From a virus, in the IMG/VR virus record IMGVR_UViG_3300037258_000514, positions 111,953 to 175,952 of that record: 64,000 nucleotides of DNA, one strand, 5' to 3'. Position 1 is the first letter of the stretch. Every line of letters begins with the position of its first letter. The notes beneath the pieces were generated by a model that saw only the letters and a list, made by a program, of their open reading frames with translations, did no database searches and was not told where the DNA came from. Position numbers and translations under genes: made by a program. Positions 8,052-58,533 of this stretch are shown here, piece after piece.

Positions 8052-8402
8052 TTACCTTTCTTGAAGTTTTATGTCGTCAGGGATAAACCCTTCTCTCAAC
8101 CACTGATCGACGATAATGCTTCCCTTTTTGTTGTCTTTTGTTACTATACGAAAGCTTTTGTTTACAGCTTTTAACTGCTCTGCTAAAGACTTTGCCATTG
8201 CTGGAGTGCAAGGGGCACTGTAAAGAATGAATCCACATTTACAAGCTAGCCCGGTATCTTTATCTATCTGATAATTTTCACATAAAACTGTATGAAGATC
8301 AGATCGTTTTTTGATTACTTCGCTCACGATGTTTACACAACAGTTACACTTTCGGCAATGAATTCCTTTGCAACAAGAAGCGCACTCCCAATCACTAGTC
8401 AT
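8052..8402 (-). CDS. Cys-rich hypothetical protein
   Basis: N-terminal CASCCKGIHCRKCNCC. Confidence 0.6.
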   Translation of the reverse strand: MTSDWECASCCKGIHCRKCNCCVNIVSEVIKKRSDLHTVLCENYQIDKDTGLACKCGFILYSAPCTPAMAKSLAEQLKAVNKSFRIVTKDNKKGSIIVDQWLREGFIPDDIKLQER

Positions 8403-8673
8403 CTAACCTTATTTCACGCTCTTCGTTAACGTTTAGTTTTGGTCTAAGTTTTGCTTGGTGCACTCTCTCTTCTACTTCTGCGCGTTCTTTAGCAAGTTGC
8501 GCTTTAACCTGCTTCTCAATTTTTTCTTTCTTTTGTTTTTCTAATCGTAGATTACTTTCTCGCGCCCAGCGCGCCGTCGCTGTTCTACAATCTGAGCAGT
8601 AGCCCTCTTTGGATAGAAAGACAAGTGATTTAACTGTCTTCGCGCAAGAACCGCATCTAAGTGCTACTTTCAC
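8395..8673 (-). CDS. Zn-ribbon/coiled-coil protein ending REIRLDD
   Basis: CGSC...CSDC; GGAGG SD; shared C-terminal tag. Confidence 0.7.
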   Translation of the reverse strand: MKVALRCGSCAKTVKSLVFLSKEGYCSDCRTATARWARESNLRLEKQKKEKIEKQVKAQLAKERAEVEERVHQAKLRPKLNVNEEREIRLDD

Positions 8674-8765
8674 TAGTCCTCCAATCTGACTTCGCGTACG
8701 TCTAATATTTCTTTCTTCTTCTTTGGTTTTTCGTTCAGAAATTCTTTTCCTGTAAGCTTAGTCAT
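8673..8765 (-). CDS. 30-aa microprotein ending REVRLED (not in ORF track)
   Basis: MTKLTGKEFLNEKPKKKKEILDVREVRLED; fills the gap exactly, overlaps both neighbours, GAGGTG SD. Confidence 0.7.
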   Translation of the reverse strand: MTKLTGKEFLNEKPKKKKEILDVREVRLED

Positions 8766-9039
8766 CAAAACGCACCTCACGCTCTGGTTTCTGCTCTTTC
8801 GAAACGTTTAGTTGCTCAAGTGTGCGGACTCTTGCCCTTAATCGTTCAATATCTTTTTCTGTCTTTTTTACTTGCCATTGGGCTGTATCAAGTGCTCGTG
8901 CTAGTTTAACTACATTTGCTAGCAGGTTGTCATATTTTGATTTTACATTCCTGTGTACTTTGTTATTACTATACGCCTGCAAGATTATTATTACTGTTAA
9001 TCCCGCTAGCCAACCTCCGTAAGCAATATTGAAAGTCAT
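8758..9039 (-). CDS. membrane-anchored coiled-coil protein ending REVRFDD
   Basis: N-terminal hydrophobic helix, heptad region, shared tag. Confidence 0.7.
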   Translation of the reverse strand: MTFNIAYGGWLAGLTVIIILQAYSNNKVHRNVKSKYDNLLANVVKLARALDTAQWQVKKTEKDIERLRARVRTLEQLNVSKEQKPEREVRFDD

Positions 9040-9320
9040 TAATCTTCCAATCTTACAACACGCATTTCCTCGTCGGCAAGTTGCTTCTCATGCTTATCAA
9101 CAGCGAACGAATATCCTTGTCCTGTTAATTGCAGTTGTTTTTGCAAGATATGCTGACAGGCTTTCCTCTTTTCAAATTCTAACTTTTGGAATTTCCATGC
9201 AGGGCAAGTGCATCCAAACACTCCATCTTCGCGTTGACTTACTTTATATTTCTTCCCTGAAGTACCAATTACATCCCAGTGTTTTACCCAACCATTCGTG
9301 TCTTGAGTCTTATTTTTCAA
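9039..9320 (-). CDS. SWIM zinc-finger protein ending RVVRLED
   Basis: GTSGKKYKV...CTCPAW...CQH. Confidence 0.8.
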   Translation of the reverse strand: MKNKTQDTNGWVKHWDVIGTSGKKYKVSQREDGVFGCTCPAWKFQKLEFEKRKACQHILQKQLQLTGQGYSFAVDKHEKQLADEEMRVVRLED

Positions 9321-9543
9321 TTCATCACCTTGAAGAACAAATCCTGCATTAAGACAGCGTTTTTTCGTACCGAGCGAGTTAAAGTGCGCGCTCCCTCTAT
9401 ATATCTGTAGATGTTATAGTCTTGAAACCCTTTTTCCTGGCATCTTCGCTTGCTTCTTCAGAAGGACGCGTTGCTTGGTAAGGCGCATCTGATTGCTTAG
9501 TAAGCATCATAATTTGATTAGAAGTAGACAATTTAAGTCTTCT

Positions 9544-9569
9544 GTTCCGCTCACTTCGGTGAACGGAAC
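9544..9569. promoter_or_regulatory. stable hairpin (terminator or processing element) downstream of the DUF3150-like gene
   Basis: GTTCCGCTCAC-TTCG-GTGAACGGAAC. Confidence 0.45.
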
Positions 9570-9592
9570 GCAGGACTTAACCTGCGTTTACC

Positions 9593-10540
9593 TTAGTCTT
9601 CGAATCTTACAGCGCGCATCGGAGCGTCAACCAAAGCCTTGTCCAATTCAGCTTTGATTTGTTCAAAGCCTGCTTGTACGCCTGCTCTCATTGACTCGTT
9701 AGTCCTTAACATATCAGGAGTAACGTCGTTGATAAGAGCCTTTGCTTGATCAGCAAGTTTGTCTAAGTTCTCATTGCCTGTTAGATTTCTAACTTTGAGA
9801 ACTTTCAGGAAGTCAGTCAGATTATCGAGCATCGAATCTCTGAAAACTTTCTTCTTTCCTTCTTCTGCTGGAGACAACCTTTCAACAAGATGTCCAACAA
9901 GTTCGTTCATTCCCGAGTAGAGGACTTGCTCTGCTACGTTACCCGCCTCTACCCATTTCTGAACCATCTTGTCAGCTTCTCTTGCAGCTACTTCTGCGCT
10001 GATCTCTTTTAGTTTCGCATCAACTGAGAACTGAACATATTGCCAACTAAAGTAAAAGCTAGCTCTATATGCTTCCTTTGTAAGGTAGTCATTGGGATCA
10101 AAAAGATCGCCTAGGGAGGCTTTTGCTTCTTCAAGATCGTGTTCGTAAGCATTAAAACAATTCTCAATCAATGGTAAACGTCCGGCTTGGTGTTGTGTAA
10201 GTTCGTTTTCTGTTTCGTTAAACAGGTCGATGGGCAACATATACATCGCTCTCTTTAACGGGAAGGGAATACAACGTCGAGAAAGGAACTCATCAATCTT
10301 AGCATCAAAGTTAAACAACTTCTTCAGTGCTTGTGAATTGAAGAGATCCTTTGAAACGTGAATGCGTTTCTTGTTCGCGTTCACTTGTATCTCAGAAGAG
10401 CTAACTGTCTTCGATAGGCTAGGCCACCTACGGCTAACCGTAAGGATAACAGCTGAATCCATAATGTTGTTCTTGGGCTTAACTGTTGGGTTAACTTCGT
10501 TGTGTTGCGTTGAGGGCATTTCAATTACTTCTGCTGTCAT
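9593..10540 (-). CDS. DUF3150-like protein ending RAVRFED
   Basis: SKDLF...LGDLFDPNDY...LVGHLVERLSP..EGKKKVFRDS..NL...LRTNESMR pattern; near DUF1257/DUF2997/AAA genes. Confidence 0.7.
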   Translation of the reverse strand: MTAEVIEMPSTQHNEVNPTVKPKNNIMDSAVILTVSRRWPSLSKTVSSSEIQVNANKKRIHVSKDLFNSQALKKLFNFDAKIDEFLSRRCIPFPLKRAMYMLPIDLFNETENELTQHQAGRLPLIENCFNAYEHDLEEAKASLGDLFDPNDYLTKEAYRASFYFSWQYVQFSVDAKLKEISAEVAAREADKMVQKWVEAGNVAEQVLYSGMNELVGHLVERLSPAEEGKKKVFRDSMLDNLTDFLKVLKVRNLTGNENLDKLADQAKALINDVTPDMLRTNESMRAGVQAGFEQIKAELDKALVDAPMRAVRFED

Positions 10541-12450: not shown

Positions 12451-12706
12451 ACTCTCCTTTAGAGAAAAGAACCCTCTCAATATATGAAACCTCTTCAGCT
12501 AAAGCATCAGCACGAAGCTTATGCTTTCCTAGCTTCGTACCATCTATCATTGTTGCTTGCCACATGCCGTCTTCTGTTGGTTCGACATTACTAACACGAC
12601 AAACGCTGGCTTGCCCCTCACGGAGCAAGTCAGCTAATCTGTCGTCGTATATGAAGGCTATACGGCCTTCTTTACTGATTGAGAGTTTGAGTTTCTGGTC
12701 TGGCAT
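12425..12706 (-). CDS. conserved protein of the DUF1257/DUF2997/AAA cluster
   Basis: FIYDD...RVSNVEPTEDGMW...RADALAEEV; ATG 12706 with GGAG SD. Confidence 0.65.
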   Translation of the reverse strand: MPDQKLKLSISKEGRIAFIYDDRLADLLREGQASVCRVSNVEPTEDGMWQATMIDGTKLGKHKLRADALAEEVSYIERVLFSKGEYENTESPA

Positions 12707-12854
12707 ACATCTCCATTGTTGGTTCGTCGCTTGATACTTTGCCGAGTGCTTCTTCAAGATTGCGCGTTAACTCTTTGCAACTACTTCCTGAAACACCATT
12801 AACAAAGATGGAAACTTTACCATCTTTTGGAATTAACACTTTGATTGTTTGCAT
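12672..12854 (-). CDS. DUF2997-family protein
   Basis: IPKDGKVSIFVNGVSGSSCKELTRNLEEALG...PTMEMY. Confidence 0.85.
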   Translation of the reverse strand: MQTIKVLIPKDGKVSIFVNGVSGSSCKELTRNLEEALGKVSSDEPTMEMYARPETQTLNQ

Positions 12855-12856
12855 AG

Positions 12857-13297
12857 TTAGTTCTTTACCGCCTCAAGCTCAATCGTTCCATCCTTGAGCG
12901 TAGTTGTTCGGATTTCGAATCCAAACGGAATGTTCTTCTTCGCAACTTCCAACTGATAGTTTTGGATCAGGTTAGAAGCATTGGAACCTACCTTTGCTTC
13001 CAAACCATATCCTCCACCGAAGAAGTCGTAAAGTAGAGTGTAGCCAGACTTTGCAGTGCGGCTCTTTACAACACCAACTTCGTAAGCGTTTTTGTTTCCA
13101 GGCACACGAAGAGCATGATCACACTTACCAAGATCCTTCTCGCTAAAGCCGGCAGGGACCGGATAATCTCCTACGCTATGTCCCCACCACTTATATGAAT
13201 GTTGATCACGAACAAATTCTAATCCAATATTCTTAGCTGCTTTTTCAAGACAACCTAAATCCTTAATTTCACAATCTATCGTTACAACGTGTGACAT
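12857..13297 (-). CDS. DUF1257 (Ycf35-like) protein
   Basis: MSHVVTIDCEIKDL..LEKA...YEVGV...YTLLYDF...LIQNY...DGTIEL. Confidence 0.85.
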   Translation of the reverse strand: MSHVVTIDCEIKDLGCLEKAAKNIGLEFVRDQHSYKWWGHSVGDYPVPAGFSEKDLGKCDHALRVPGNKNAYEVGVVKSRTAKSGYTLLYDFFGGGYGLEAKVGSNASNLIQNYQLEVAKKNIPFGFEIRTTTLKDGTIELEAVKN

Positions 13298-13937
13298 TTG
13301 TTATATCCTCCATTAGTTTATTTATACCGTTGTTCTTGAACTTACCTGTTAAATCTGTGACTATAATAAATTCGGCGTTATTTTCTGCGCACCATCCCTC
13401 TGCTGCCGCAAATTTTCTTGGATTATCATAACAATCCAAGAAACACTTTGGTTTTACCTCAACAAGAAATTTCTTTGTCCTTATGCTGTAAAGCATAAAA
13501 TCAGGTACGTATTTCTTCTTGTATCCTGATTCAGATATGTAGGCTATTCTAATTGGTTCATATTCAAATCTTTCTACAAAAGGATTTTCTTCCAAGAATC
13601 TAATGTAGTAACGCTCAAAGCTGCTTCTACAATAGAAATTTCCTCCTTTTTCAGTTTGAATATAGCCTCCACAAAACTTACCGCGCTTTGATATAAGATT
13701 CTCTTTTCCTATAGATCTAAGAATCTTCTTTACGGAATGTAAATTAATTCCTGATATACTCCGTAGTTCAGAAGCGTTAAGTAATGAATGCTGTTCGAGT
13801 AATGATACAACTACTCGACGCTTTCCCGCAAAATCCAGTTGTTCTTTGTGCTTCACGTATTTTTGTATTTGCTCATCTGGCGAAGTGCGCCATCGAATTT
13901 TCATTTCTTCCTGACGATCTTTTAAAGATTGAATCAT
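13269..13937 (-). CDS. homing endonuclease-like, TnsA-N PD-(D/E)XK domain
   Basis: RSSFER...YEPIRIAY...YVPDF...LVEVKP...KFAAA. Confidence 0.8.
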   Translation of the reverse strand: MIQSLKDRQEEMKIRWRTSPDEQIQKYVKHKEQLDFAGKRRVVVSLLEQHSLLNASELRSISGINLHSVKKILRSIGKENLISKRGKFCGGYIQTEKGGNFYCRSSFERYYIRFLEENPFVERFEYEPIRIAYISESGYKKKYVPDFMLYSIRTKKFLVEVKPKCFLDCYDNPRKFAAAEGWCAENNAEFIIVTDLTGKFKNNGINKLMEDITNVTRCNDRL

Positions 13938-15489: not shown

Positions 15490-17049
15490 TCATGCTTCAC
15501 CTACTTTCGTATCAAGATTTACAATTCGTCCTTGATCAGAATCTTGCGTTTGTTTTACGTTACTGAATGTGTAAACACCGCTCTTGCTAGCGGATAGATA
15601 CTTTCGATCTGCCATTCTGCGCAGTTCTTCAATCCTCTTTGGATCAGCCCTTATGACTGGAACGATGTAACATGCTGCTTCCTCAAGCGTAATGCGTAAT
15701 TGCCATGCCAACATGCAGCAATCGTGGATATTTCTTGGGGTCCATCCATCCTCGTTAGACGGTAGTGGGTGGTCCAACTTATATTTAGTTTTCCATACGT
15801 CCCACACTGCCATTCTTTCTTCCCTTGTCGGCAAATCAAAGAAGAACGTTCCGAGATTAAATCTGTCCTTTAATTCTGACGACAAGGCACTCTCATCATT
15901 GCAAGTAGCAATCACAAGTGGCTTGCCTGACGCAACAATTGCAGCAAGAGCGTTCTTCAACTGCTGAGTTGACTGTCCAACAAACTGTCCCTTCAACTCA
16001 GAAATGTTATTGATAATAAGTGGAATCTTATACTCTCCAGCCAGCGCCTTCGAGATATAAGATTTGCTGCATCCCTGAATGCCTGCAAACCTAATCGCAA
16101 GCACTTCATTATCAGCCATCCAAGAAAGAATCTGTCCGTGCATTTCCTGCGATACTCCACTGCTATCACCTTTTGATCCTGCAAAGGCTTTCTCAAGTTC
16201 ATCCCAGAATACAAGAACAGTTGGCGGATCTTGGCCGTTCATTACTTTTGTAAGATATTCCTTAATTACAGGAACACCTCTTACATCGTTGAATGATTCT
16301 TTCCCGCCCCAGATTCTCATTCCAGGGTTTTGTTCAATAGCCGCTTTCTTTCTATCCCATAACCGCTTTGAATCTATGCCTTCTTTGGTAAGTGACATAG
16401 CAACAACTTGTTCCGCCGAGAATGCTGCTAACCCTTTGATTGATCTAACAGCACGCTTAATGTCGTCCTCTTCAGGCTTAACTTTCGCTTCTTTGTAAGT
16501 TGACTTACAAAGCTTCTCAACAATTACTTTTAAATCTTCTTCTGTTGGAAGAGGATCTTCAAGTACAAGCATATCCTGCTTTAGTTCAGCGGGCAGTTGA
16601 ATGCCTGGTGTTAGGATAACCAACGTCTTGCGCGAAGATTTGAACTGATCACGCAAATTCCAAATCGCTTGCCCAACGATCGCCTCTGCAAGATCGTGAC
16701 TACCAATAAATCTGTGACCATTGTGGATGAAGATGATTGTCTTTCGATCCACATGTGCAAACAATTTCATTGCGGCGGCAGGATCAGTAATCTGACTTGG
16801 GAGAATGTTCTCCCTCTGTGTTGCAACGCACAGTTGCTGAACCTGATCTTCGCCAGCTTTATTGACAGCTTTTAATCCCGATGAAATATCAAAGCTGATA
16901 AGTGGGGCACCCTCGTTGGCGGTGCCTTTTTCTTCTGTAATTGCGTTAATTTGCTTAATTACGGAAGCAGGGTCAGGTGTTTGGATACACAGCAGAGGTA
17001 CACCAGCGCGTAAAGCAGCTTTAAAGTCTTGTATCAACTTTGTTTCCAT
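15490..17049 (-). CDS. Ycf46-like AAA+ ATPase with rearranged core
   Basis: Inactive N-terminal AAA-like domain; VLVFWDELEK; GIQGCSKS; VIATCN; RFNLGTFFFDLP. Confidence 0.85.
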   Translation of the reverse strand: METKLIQDFKAALRAGVPLLCIQTPDPASVIKQINAITEEKGTANEGAPLISFDISSGLKAVNKAGEDQVQQLCVATQRENILPSQITDPAAAMKLFAHVDRKTIIFIHNGHRFIGSHDLAEAIVGQAIWNLRDQFKSSRKTLVILTPGIQLPAELKQDMLVLEDPLPTEEDLKVIVEKLCKSTYKEAKVKPEEDDIKRAVRSIKGLAAFSAEQVVAMSLTKEGIDSKRLWDRKKAAIEQNPGMRIWGGKESFNDVRGVPVIKEYLTKVMNGQDPPTVLVFWDELEKAFAGSKGDSSGVSQEMHGQILSWMADNEVLAIRFAGIQGCSKSYISKALAGEYKIPLIINNISELKGQFVGQSTQQLKNALAAIVASGKPLVIATCNDESALSSELKDRFNLGTFFFDLPTREERMAVWDVWKTKYKLDHPLPSNEDGWTPRNIHDCCMLAWQLRITLEEAACYIVPVIRADPKRIEELRRMADRKYLSASKSGVYTFSNVKQTQDSDQGRIVNLDTKVGEA

Positions 17050-17054
17050 TAAAT

Positions 17055-17867
17055 CTATTTCCTTCCTCTCATCGATTTTATTAGTTCATCAACTGTTGTT
17101 ATCTTGCTCTCAAAATCTAAGAAGATTCTTTCAATATCTTTCGTTAAATCTTCTTTTGTTTTTTCCCTGCGCATTTGAAGCGCTTGTTTAAATCCAATTC
17201 GAAATCCTACGAGTAAAAATCCTTTTCGTTGCGATTCTGGTTCAAGAATTTTATGGCAAGCTGTACAGACCGTTATACCATTCATTAAATCATATTGAAG
17301 TTCGGGAAATGCTCGTCGTGGTTTAAGATGATGAGCGTGGCGATCTTTTCCTTTTACTATTTTTTCGCAAATTCTACAAGTATCCTTATCTCTTTTGTAA
17401 ACCGCTTGTCGCCATTCATAATATTGAATGCCTCCTTGCGTATCGAGAGTAGCGCGTGCTCGTTGACTTTTAATTCTTCGTGCAAGAATTTCTTTTGCTT
17501 TTTCTTCTCCGTGAATTTCCTGGAGAGTTTTACCACGAAGTTTATCGCCTAGAATATTACCAGCTTTTACTATGTTCATAAGCATCTCATTTGCGCGTTC
17601 ACCATAAGTCTCAGTTAAAGACTCTCCTTTATTATGCGGCTGCCGTGCTCTTGCTTTTTTGATTAGTTCGGCTGCCCTTTCCTCTCCGTACAGTTCAACA
17701 TACGATTTGCCTACTGTGCGACCTTTTCTCCCTTTTAAAGCCTTTGAAATTTTCTCAGCTATACACAGTTTTTCTGCTTGAGATCGCGTAGATGCTTGGG
17801 CAATTGCAAACAAACGCCTCTCCTCGATCCATATTTTATAGCGCTCTGGATTCAGAGGAGCAGGCAT
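17055..17867 (-). CDS. HNH homing endonuclease with N-terminal DNA-binding repeats
   Basis: WRQAVYKRDKDTCRIC...HAHHLKP...NGITVCTACH. Confidence 0.85.
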   Translation of the reverse strand: MPAPLNPERYKIWIEERRLFAIAQASTRSQAEKLCIAEKISKALKGRKGRTVGKSYVELYGEERAAELIKKARARQPHNKGESLTETYGERANEMLMNIVKAGNILGDKLRGKTLQEIHGEEKAKEILARRIKSQRARATLDTQGGIQYYEWRQAVYKRDKDTCRICEKIVKGKDRHAHHLKPRRAFPELQYDLMNGITVCTACHKILEPESQRKGFLLVGFRIGFKQALQMRREKTKEDLTKDIERIFLDFESKITTVDELIKSMRGRK

Positions 17868-56541: not shown

Positions 56542-58533
56542 ATGAGAATCAATCAAGAAAATTACGTCCAGAGAGTATTAATGGGACGTGAAGCCGTTGC
56601 TAAGGCGCTTTCAACAGATGCTATTAAAGATTTGTGTAAGCGTACAAGAGACTTAGATCCTTCTTCACAAGATCCTACTAAGAAGTGGACGTTAGATCAC
56701 CCTCTTGTAAAGGCAACTAGCCGAGCCTTAATTAAGGCTCAATATGATGCTATCCAAGAGCTGATGAAAACCAATCCTCCCGGACTTGGAACATGGCTGG
56801 GATTTAACTTCTACGATCTTCGTGGACCTGCTTACTTCCTGTTTCCATTACTAACGCCCTTTATTCAGATGATCCCGAAGAGGGGAAAAGTTAATGCAGG
56901 CGTAGGTACAGTGGCGCACTGGAAGGCAACACGCAATCCAAACAGTACATACATCTATGCTGGCGTGCAAGAAGGTCAGCGCAACGCAACAGCAACACCT
57001 AACGAATTCGATTTCCTTGCAACATACAAGGAACTCGGTATGGAAGGTGGAAACACATTCACAAGCCAATGGGCTGGTGAAGGGTACACAGATAACCTAG
57101 CAGACGAACATTTCCGTAACCTTGCTCGCCTTCGCTTGCAAGAGGAAATGATTACACTGCTTGGAAACTCTGGTACAGCAACTGGTAACCTTGGTTTTCA
57201 AATGGGACAGGCACCAAACATTACAGCAACACTGGTGTCTGCTGATACATTTAATTCGCCTGCTTCAGCAGGATTCTCTTCTGCAACAAACGTGTCAGCT
57301 TGCGTTGTTGCAATTTCCGGAATGGGAATGAATCCTGGTGGACAAGGCGGCTACAACAGCCCGCCAACAATTACAAACGGACTAGTACCAACATCAACAC
57401 GTCAGAACGTTGATGGAACCACGTTGGCAGTTAACGGCGGAACATCGCAGATTTCAAACGTTAACGCATACGTAACAACAAATGCGACTGCCAAATGGGT
57501 ACAGCTTACTTGCGCAGCAGTTCAGGGTGCCGTGGGCTATGCCTGGTACATTTCAACAGGCGGCGTGGTTGCCGCTGCTGGAAATAATACACAGGGCGGC
57601 TGCGCTCTGGCACAAATTACACCTTGGCCAAAAGCAGTTATCGGTGCTGCGGCGTTAGGTGGTGCGCAACTTGGTAACGCAACAGGACTCAGCACTGACT
57701 ACAGTTATCAGACAACAGATTTTGATGGATTGCTAACTTATGCGTTCAAGAATGGTTACTGGAACGACATGGGCGGCGGTACATTTACACCTGTTGGCAA
57801 TGGTCAGATTGCTGAAGTTGAAACCGACTTGCAATATCTGTGGAATAACTATCAGGCACAACCTGATGCAATTTGGTGTTCCTCAGACGTGCGTGCCGAA
57901 CTAGATCAAGCTGTACTGTACTCTTCAACAGGTACAAACTCCTTTATCTTCCAGTACACACGTGATAGTCAAGGAGCAATCCTTGGTGGTAACATGGTAA
58001 CTGCGTATAAGTCTAAATATTCAGTTAACCCTGAAGGTGGAGCAGCAATCCCAATCAGACTTCACCCGATGCTACCACAGGGCACGTTGTACTACGATAT
58101 TAACACAAACCCATACCCGCATAGCAGAGTACCTGCTGTTAGGGAATTCATGACACAACGTGATTACTATGCCATTGAATGGCCGATCGTAACTCGTGAG
58201 TGGACGTATGGTACATATATTCACGAAGTACTCGCTCACTACATGCCATGGATAAGTGCTGTGAGAACTGGCGTCGGACGTTTTGTAGCGCCTTGCTACC
58301 TAGCCGCAGTAGCATTTGACGAGAACTTCTACACAGGTCCAAAAACACAAGCTGTTCGCAACTACTTACTTGGTTGGGAGCAGAAGTCGGGACTTGGCAA
58401 GATCGTTGTTGGCTTCTACAGACTACACGGAAAAGCCGCAGCCGAACTTGCGCAGAAGTCTTCGTTCGCAAAGCGCGTACTACGATCTGTATTTGATCGA
58501 GTGCTTGCTAAGACCGAAGCTGCTGCTAAATAA
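56542..58533 (+). CDS. major capsid protein with extra C-terminal domain
   Basis: YDL...LFP.LTP...IP; RLQEE...LGN; PIRLHP.LP.GT; RDYYAIEWP...YGTY..EVL; strong SD; position after scaffold. Confidence 0.8.
   Translation: MRINQENYVQRVLMGREAVAKALSTDAIKDLCKRTRDLDPSSQDPTKKWTLDHPLVKATSRALIKAQYDAIQELMKTNPPGLGTWLGFNFYDLRGPAYFLFPLLTPFIQMIPKRGKVNAGVGTVAHWKATRNPNSTYIYAGVQEGQRNATATPNEFDFLATYKELGMEGGNTFTSQWAGEGYTDNLADEHFRNLARLRLQEEMITLLGNSGTATGNLGFQMGQAPNITATLVSADTFNSPASAGFSSATNVSACVVAISGMGMNPGGQGGYNSPPTITNGLVPTSTRQNVDGTTLAVNGGTSQISNVNAYVTTNATAKWVQLTCAAVQGAVGYAWYISTGGVVAAAGNNTQGGCALAQITPWPKAVIGAAALGGAQLGNATGLSTDYSYQTTDFDGLLTYAFKNGYWNDMGGGTFTPVGNGQIAEVETDLQYLWNNYQAQPDAIWCSSDVRAELDQAVLYSSTGTNSFIFQYTRDSQGAILGGNMVTAYKSKYSVNPEGGAAIPIRLHPMLPQGTLYYDINTNPYPHSRVPAVREFMTQRDYYAIEWPIVTREWTYGTYIHEVLAHYMPWISAVRTGVGRFVAPCYLAAVAFDENFYTGPKTQAVRNYLLGWEQKSGLGKIVVGFYRLHGKAAAELAQKSSFAKRVLRSVFDRVLAKTEAAAK

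Follow-up and report, generated by a model that had tools for sequence, protein, structure and literature searches.

The chain topology of the AAA+ ATPase core is usually regarded as fixed. A 64,000-nucleotide stretch of viral DNA, which forms the final 64 kb of the 175,952-bp IMG/VR virus record IMGVR_UViG_3300037258_000514 (completeness estimate 86%) and is called the window hereafter, contains on its minus strand an open reading frame (ORF; 15490-17049) for a 519-amino-acid protein with tandem AAA domains, here named P0001, in which the Walker B motif precedes the Walker A motif. The question raised by this locus is whether such a rearrangement is real and, if so, whether a protein connected in this way can still fold and work as an AAA+ ATPase. 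The rearrangement is almost certainly real. It is an exchange of two adjacent internal cassettes, is not circular and leaves the ends of the domain unchanged, and it most likely defines a very large lineage of ATPases of phages, plasmids and integrated elements. The fold that results is very probably preserved and active, as judged from conservation, covariation and a structural model.

Order of the AAA+ blocks

The conserved strings of P0001 follow one another at residues 276-311 (PTVLVFWDELEK...ILSWM), 318-360 (AIRFAGIQGCSKS...FVGQS), 377-384 (PLVIATCN) and 396-407 (RFNLGTFFFDLP). All four strings that had been quoted in a preliminary description of this DNA were recovered, in the same sequence of blocks. 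The motifs themselves are those expected of an AAA+ ATPase: the Walker B pattern hhhhDE is present as V-L-V-F-W-D283-E284, pore loop 1 has the aromatic/hydrophobic-hydrophobic-Gly pattern (F356-V357-G358, with V/I/L in 404/404 aligned family sequences), and the polar sensor-1 residue (N384) and the arginine of the second region of homology (SRH; R396) are accompanied by a second arginine at position 395 or 439, the latter in P0001. The linear order of Walker A, pore loop 1, Walker B and sensor 1 laid down in the Pfam AAA family (PF00004) is not followed. The PF00004 profile covers only residues 321-379, which correspond to profile positions 3-60 of 131, and residues 262-315 scanned alone match positions 46-96 weakly (E 0.073; 14 bits, under the Pfam cut-off of 21.2 bits). 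As positions 46-96 lie upstream of positions 3-60, the order of the two blocks is reversed relative to the Pfam model. A second Walker B at the canonical place, which according to the preliminary description would speak against a relocation, was looked for in P0001 and not found; only two residues separate helix alpha2 (359-374) from the sensor-1 strand (377-382), and there is thus no room for one.

The first of the exchanged segments, the Walker B cassette (residues 274-315; 16105..16230, minus strand), is delimited by block alignment, an off-diagonal profile match and covariation, and contains the strand ending in D283-E284, the pore-loop-2-like GDSSG loop and helix alpha3 (W310-M311-x-D313). 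It is followed by the Walker A/pore-loop cassette (residues 316-376; 15922..16104, minus strand), assigned from PF00004 positions 3-60 and from the alignment to residues 320-373 of the Corndog protein described below, with beta1, the P-loop G323-x-x-G326-C-S-K329-S330, alpha1, beta2, pore loop 1 and alpha2. The sensor-1 strand (ATC-N384), the SRH (E392-L-K-D395-R396-F) and beta5 come next (residues 377-405; 15835..15921, minus strand), as assigned from conservation and from the alignment to Corndog residues 418-455. A circular permutation was considered and rejected, as alpha0 (residues 260-270) before the swap and sensor 1 and the lid after it are all in place. A leftover duplicated cassette, which would be the trace of an origin by duplication and deletion, was likewise rejected, the rewired elements being only 7 and 2 residues apart.

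Compared with the consensus GxxxxGK[ST], the Walker A of P0001 (G323-I-Q-G326-C-S328-K329-S330) retains the conserved Gly, Lys and Ser/Thr and has a serine in place of the glycine before the lysine. The preliminary description was right in calling this GCSKS form non-canonical in P0001, but the serine is not a fixed trait: across the family, position 328 holds alanine in 223 sequences, glycine in 120, serine in 43, threonine in 9 and cysteine in 8.

A relative with the normal order was found by tblastn of phage records. This protein, gp96 of Mycobacterium phage Corndog (cluster O), has Walker A (GVSGCGKT), KYVGES, Walker B (VIVYIDEVEK...GGVS...ILTWMQD) and MMTAN in this order, and is produced in infected cells (PMC4351075). 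In a pairwise alignment with P0001, the Corndog Walker B block stands opposite a 37-residue gap and the DELEK block of P0001 has no true partner. When the blocks were aligned separately and scored against 300 shuffles each, residues 278-313 of P0001 matched Corndog residues 374-411 (z = 12.3), residues 323-376 matched 320-373 (z = 16.6) and residues 379-415 matched 418-455 (z = 9.9). A profile of the permuted family (404 sequences) was also compared by hhalign with a profile of 116 Corndog-like normal-order sequences. In the native order, the main alignment (score 400) was accompanied by an off-diagonal match of 277-320 to 373-418 (probability 98%, E 2e-13), whereas after in-silico de-permutation, in which columns 271-315 were placed behind column 376, one colinear alignment was obtained (score 524, E 6e-68) and the off-diagonal match was gone. 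Block alignments and profile comparison thus bear out the proposal that the Walker B strand-plus-helix unit was moved N-terminally.

The normal-order relatives, among them Corndog gp96 and WDT77853.1, have a two-domain plan like that of P0001 (profile alignment 6-493 versus 27-552) and share with it the motifs DE[IL]EK...G, GDxxG, W-M/L-x-D, the Y/F/L-V-G pore loop, the T-x-N sensor 1 and FFFDLP, as well as a C-terminal tail with an arginine. P0001 shows the Ycf46-like combination of a degenerate N-domain and a C-terminal AAA domain with DE[IL]EKxxxG, GDxxG and W[ML]xD. Unlike P0001, the normal-order set has Walker A, pore loop, Walker B and sensor 1 in this succession in 116/116 sequences, a full GxxGxGK[ST] Walker A and an SRH in which the R-x-G-R spacing is kept; Pfam detects the whole AAA domain plus AAA_lid_3 in these proteins, versus half a domain in P0001.

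The Walker B-first order extends far beyond this record. A homologue search yielded 562 matches; among the matches listed, the 119 other best homologues, with 40-65% identity and 91-100% query coverage, all share it. In a profile search of 1.84 billion cluster representatives (50% identity), 3,178 clusters matched the permuted profile at E <= 1e-30, a count that includes normal-order relatives. The best 150 of these 3,178 representatives all scored at least 568 bits and 143 of them aligned end to end in one stretch; six long members (650-900 amino acids) were split in two, with inteins in the five that were tested, and P0240 (539 amino acids) was also split. The preliminary description had proposed a search for homologues with the same order, and of the 381 family members in which both motifs occur, 379 indeed have DE[ILVM][EDQ]K 25-70 residues upstream of GxxGxxK[ST]; none of the 116 normal-order sequences does. 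Relatives are encoded by at least 397 stretches in GTDB species-representative genomes, some genomes having several, and by 167 stretches on IMG/VR contigs. The bacterial carriers, of which a sample of 80 loci was kept, belong to Acidobacteriota, Nitrospirota, Armatimonadota, Planctomycetota, Proteobacteria and others, with Nitrospira moscoviensis represented by a complete isolate genome; the Tunturiibacter phage Tunturi_3, which has been isolated, is a carrier as well. An origin of the order in a faulty contig join, the misassembly against which the preliminary description had cautioned, or in a local rearrangement confined to this record can be dismissed as having a negligible probability, since the 379 homologues come from hundreds of independent assemblies, including the N. 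moscoviensis genome and phage Tunturi_3, the frame is intact and the sequences before and after each junction are strongly conserved.

In a tree of 181 permuted and 29 normal-order tips, the two orders separate cleanly and the permuted sequences form one clade. The split is consistent with a single origin, the normal-order sample being small. From these sequence comparisons, the swap most likely arose once, in a Ycf46-like ATPase of mobile elements. A literature search, which covered open papers and preprints only, returned no published description of this AAA+ rearrangement.

The intein-bearing members (P0123, P0193, P0199, P0255 and P0266; 650-900 amino acids), some of which contain LAGLIDADG or HNH homing endonucleases, have the insertion either within the P-loop or immediately N-terminal to the Cys in the sensor-1 strand ATCN. 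In P0199, whose P-loop is split by its intein, Pfam AAA positions 58-106 are matched right in front of the insertion, so that Walker B comes first here too.

Predicted fold and catalytic residues

An AlphaFold model of P0001 built on 120 sequences had a mean pLDDT (predicted local distance difference test) of 92.8 and a pTM (predicted template-modelling score) of 0.86; pLDDT was 95-97 in the relocated cassette and fell below 50 at residues 504-510 of the tail. Along the chain, the model has helix 260-270, strand 278-282 (Walker B), helix 299-313, strand 317-323, the P-loop helix 329-340, strand 344-347, helix 359-374, strand 377-382 (sensor 1), strand 401-404 and the lid helices. In structural comparisons, for which Foldseek was also used, the whole model (residues 1-483) matched D1-D2 of p97/Cdc48 with Z 17-18 over ~400 aligned residues, and the D2 domain (residues ~240-490) superposed on Vps4 (Z 16.8, 2.8 Å, 205 residues) and on p97-D2 (Z 15.9, 2.6 Å, 197 residues). 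The D2 superpositions cover ~200 of ~250 residues and leave ~45 unaligned, as is expected because a sequential aligner meets one out-of-order cassette. The modelling that had been suggested as a check of the permuted fold therefore gave a confident structure with a recognizable AAA domain. A PDB sequence search with P0001 returned a weak P-loop match to NVL and nothing else, and an NCBIfam scan returned noise-level matches only. The prediction of a complex of two copies of residues 241-519 with ATP scored 0.00 and speaks neither for nor against ring formation.

Covariation was analysed by mean-field direct-coupling analysis of the 404 sequences (effective number 252). Couplings join the Walker B strand with the sensor-1 strand (L285-A381, rank 11; V280-V379, rank 16), beta1 with beta5 (F321-F404) and alpha0 with alpha1. 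Helix 299-313 is paired with alpha2 and beta4 (E302-T361, W310-V372, W310-V379 and Q306-L364), and the preceding loop with pore loop 1 (S300-K353); as far as covariation can tell, the coupling pattern of this helix is exactly that of alpha3 in normal AAA domains. The four pairs of strands that are neighbours in a 5-1-4-3-2 sheet rank 16, 45, 86 and 104, and the six non-neighbour pairs 84, 120, 162, 246, 305 and 749. With moderate power, covariation thus supports a preserved core.

In D2, a cassette of ~45 residues comprising beta3 (Walker B), pore loop 2 and alpha3 has been exchanged with one of ~60 residues comprising beta1 with the P-loop, alpha1, beta2, pore loop 1 and alpha2. Only three loops are rewired, namely alpha0 to beta3, alpha3 to beta1 and alpha2 to beta4, and the domain would very probably retain its sheet of five strands in the order 5-1-4-3-2, the packing of its helices and its active site. 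It could instead be imagined that the DExEK block is homologous to Walker B and lies elsewhere in the three-dimensional structure, as an edge strand or in the D1-D2 linker, within a remodelled core. Such a core would agree with the ~45 D2 residues left out of the sequential structure alignments and with the weak covariation between the Walker B strand and beta2 (rank 104), but it is very improbable in view of the two couplings that set the Walker B strand against the sensor-1 strand, the alpha3-like couplings of helix 299-313 and those of the preceding loop to pore loop 1, the high pLDDT of the cassette and the invariance or near-invariance of D283 and E284. The internally permuted AAA+ fold put forward in the preliminary description is thus supported by block alignment, de-permutation, conservation, model and covariation.

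The residues expected to bind and hydrolyse ATP are almost without exception kept in the 404 sequences: G326, K329, S/T330, E284 and N384 are present in 404, R396 in 403 and D283 in 400. The pore-loop glycine G358 is found in 403. The top covariation pair in the family is D395-R439. Exactly one arginine is found at position 395 or 439 in 404/404 sequences, at 395 in the SRH in 367 of them and at 439 in the lid in 37, in which case WTGAEI becomes WT[GP]R[EN]I. P0001 is in this rarer lid state; its codons for residues 395 and 439 are at 15865-15867 and 15733-15735, and the helical lid that carries the relocated R439 (WTPRNI for WTGAEI) spans residues 406-495 (15565..15834, minus strand), as assigned from the model helices and the lid alignment to Vps4 and p97-D2. 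By parsimony on the 181 permuted tips, at least 16 switches between the two states have occurred.

A permuted fold that is catalytically dead and acts as a scaffold or pseudo-ATPase has also to be considered. The Walker A of P0001 reads GIQGCSKS and not GxxxxGK[ST], its SRH reads ELKDRF and not ELRRRF, and Pfam AAA detects only half of the domain, all of which would fit a dead enzyme. Nevertheless, this explanation is improbable, as the catalytic residues are kept as described above, position 328 varies freely among the small residues A, G, S, T and C, and the loss of R395 is paired with the gain of R439 in 37/37 cases, which points to selection on a working active site. In addition, relatives have inteins inserted in the P-loop and at the sensor-1 strand, both of them typical intein sites in active ATPases. 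Taken together, the invariant catalytic residues, the arginine toggle and the sites of the inteins argue for a working ATPase, as predicted from the sequences of the family.

Domain plan, C-terminal tails and gene neighbourhood

The P0001 ATG is preceded, 9-17 nucleotides 5' of it, by a ribosome-binding site of the GGAAGGAAA type, and the ORF (15490..17049, minus strand) is open throughout its translation; the gene looks genuine and expressed. With high probability, as judged from sequence and model, P0001 is a classical-clade AAA+ ATPase that consists of a degenerate D1-like N-domain and a predicted catalytic D2. The AAA-like D1 domain (residues 1-240; 16330..17049, minus strand) was assigned from the alignment of the model to p97/Cdc48 D1-D2 and has the normal strand order. 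It is without Walker motifs and has a conserved QxIWNLRDxFK helix, of which Q127, N131, R133 and K137 are invariant in the 120-sequence alignment; phrog_8638 matches residues 3-268. At the other end, a tail predicted to be disordered from its low pLDDT (residues 496-519; 15493..15564, minus strand) contains the conserved R508-I-V-N-L-D, of the form R-x-h-x-h-acidic, with R508 present in 381 of the 404 sequences. Elsewhere in the phage record, outside the window, a second gene with a Pfam AAA match was observed at 57532-57750, in a 367-amino-acid open frame, with profile positions 2-73 matched.

Three genes of the window encode relatives of proteins that accompany the ATPase in other loci. A DUF3150-family protein of 315 amino acids ending in ...RAVRFED (9593..10540, minus strand) is 36% identical over 273 amino acids to the Pfam-assigned DUF3150 protein of locus L001 (E 1e-55); a DUF1257 (Ycf35)-like protein of 146 amino acids (12857..13297, minus strand) was recognized with an iterated profile made from Pfam-assigned DUF1257 neighbours; and a DUF2997 protein of 60 amino acids (12672..12854, minus strand) matches PF11211 (E 1e-16). 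A direct Pfam scan of the window's DUF1257-like and DUF3150-like proteins gave no match. The association of a Ycf46-like ATPase with DUF1257 and DUF2997 is thus found in the window.

With targeted profiles, neighbourhoods were counted in 47 bacterial loci with enough flanking sequence and in 82 viral loci. DUF3150 was found in 43 of the bacterial and 79 of the viral loci, DUF2997 in 35 and 42, DUF1257 in 32 and 44, and a radical SAM gene in 33 and 3, respectively. The bacterial arrays have the order AAA - DUF1257 - DUF2997 - NrdG-like radical SAM - DUF3150 - SSB (single-stranded DNA-binding protein) and sometimes adjoin a PRTRC/ThiF-E2-ubiquitin-like cassette of mobile elements. The NrdG-like radical SAM activase (TIGR02491, E 6e-26, below the cut-off) was seen in loci L001-L003 and in 44 of the 80 bacterial loci L010-L089; no such gene was found in the 64-kb window. 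On the Ca. Manganitrophus plasmid CP114559.1, the genes DUF1257-DUF2997-DUF3150 lie beside the gene of the normal-order ATPase WDT77853.1, so that the swap must have happened inside an existing module. The Corndog-like ATPases have a conserved partner of ~250 amino acids (gp95 in Corndog), which matches DUF3150 weakly (hhalign probability 51%).

In the window, an HNH endonuclease gene (17055-17867, minus strand) abuts the ATPase gene upstream, five bases from its start, and a TnsA-like endonuclease gene (13269-13937, minus strand) lies between the ATPase gene and those of the DUF1257 and DUF2997 partners. Both genes have the appearance of inserted mobile endonucleases, by which the module of this phage has been pulled apart. 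In PADLOC-DB 2.0, the sole match of the ATPase was local, to IetA at the P-loop (E 2.8e-4, residues 322-366), the DUF1257, DUF2997 and DUF3150 proteins matched none of the defence models, and no system was called.

Tails similar to that of the ATPase recur in its partner. By a strict pattern, 78 of 132 DUF3150 proteins end in R-x-h-x-h-acidic-acidic. In the window, the strict motif R-x-[VI]-R-[LF]-[ED]-D was found in 5 of 653 ORFs, all adjacent at 8395-10540 on the minus strand, where 0.27 were expected from shuffled tails. These five ORFs encode a zinc-ribbon-like protein of 92 amino acids, a 35-amino-acid peptide, a 93-amino-acid membrane/coiled-coil protein, a 93-amino-acid SWIM-like protein and the DUF3150 protein. 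In other viral loci, the number of ORFs with the tail motif is mostly one and never above three. Arginine-hydrophobic-acidic ends, e.g. ...KVRVLDL, ...RAVDLEMVH and ...NIRLLDL..., were also observed in normal-order Corndog-like ATPases and their ~250-amino-acid partners (L008 gp95/gp96, L170 and L172). As these relatives are tailed as well, the tail motif seems older than the cassette swap. The sharing of R-x-h-x-h-acidic tails suggests that they might be a common docking signal.

Possible function and comparison with known systems

P0001 might form hexamers that unfold or remodel proteins and so help the element to become established, a tentative proposal for which the gene context was the guide. 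The hexameric ring would hydrolyse ATP via K329/S330, D283/E284, N384 and R396, with R439 of the lid, rather than the neighbour-facing position 395, as the source of the second arginine, and would thread or remodel a protein substrate with its F-V-G pore loop. It would work with DUF3150 (and DUF1257/DUF2997) early after the element enters the cell, and the C-terminal R-x-h-x-h-acidic tails could serve as docking or recognition signals.

A bolder and rather doubtful extension is that the rewired ATPase drives a tag-directed system, so far undescribed, of phages and conjugative elements. DUF3150 and the tail of the ATPase both have the motif, as do four other small, unrelated proteins of this phage; it would dock clients or adaptors onto the ring, perhaps at the QxIWNLRDxFK surface of D1, and the role of the ring would be to unfold or remodel a target in the host shortly after the DNA has entered. 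The swap joins the intersubunit-signalling helix (W-M-x-D) directly to the P-loop strand and may alter subunit coupling. If this is true, the toggle of the arginine between positions 395 (trans) and 439 (cis) is a natural experiment on subunit coupling.

Several points weigh against the overall reading of a single swap that left a working unfoldase of mobile elements. The single origin depends on 29 normal-order tips and a midpoint root, with an ambiguous support value (0.71 or 1.0) for the split. Covariation of moderate power, in which the non-neighbour pair beta4-beta5 (rank 84) stands amid the neighbour pairs, and sequential alignments that leave out the ~45 residues are the basis for the sheet order and for the distance from Walker A to Walker B. 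The serine at position 328 before the P-loop lysine could weaken nucleotide binding, the ATPase activity of all family members is a prediction, and the function and the role of the tails are drawn from the gene neighbourhood only.

As it stands, a large natural lineage keeps the AAA+ fold and its catalytic residues, as predicted, in spite of swapped core segments. It could serve as a natural test of the role of connectivity in folding, in ring assembly and in the coupling of the nucleotide site to the pore loop, with the normal-order relatives in the same gene module as a built-in control and with the natural cis/trans swap of the arginine. As standard models see half of the domain, such proteins are under-annotated. 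Among uncharacterised modules located close to the early or establishment genes of mobile elements, the pair of ATPase and DUF3150 is one of the more widespread.

The best structural matches to P0001 are the type II AAA unfoldases p97/Cdc48, NVL/Rix7 and Drg1/Afg2 and the single-ring Vps4, spastin and FIGNL1. These classical-clade proteins share with it pore loop 1, the sensor-1 Asn and the SRH arginine, but identity is only 13-20%, the D1 of P0001 is without nucleotide-binding motifs, its D2 has the cassette swap and it is without an N-terminal substrate/adaptor domain of the p97 kind. A change of motif order with retention of fold and activity is known from the circularly permuted P-loop GTPases of the YlqF/YjeQ type. 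In these, the GTPase domain is circularly permuted and has new termini, whereas P0001 has an internal segment swap with unchanged ends.

With regard to gene context, the hde genes vcrx089-vcrx090 of IncC plasmids encode an AAA+ ATPase and an unannotated partner, are followed by ssb and are located on a conjugative element; they act in the recipient on entry and protect from type I and some type II restriction (PMC7498323, PMC11602122). This order resembles that of the bacterial loci described here (ATPase ... DUF3150 - SSB), a likeness that is an analogy of context. Vcrx089 itself is a MoxR/CbbQ-type AAA_5 ATPase, which belongs to another clade and, unlike P0001, has its motifs in the normal order.

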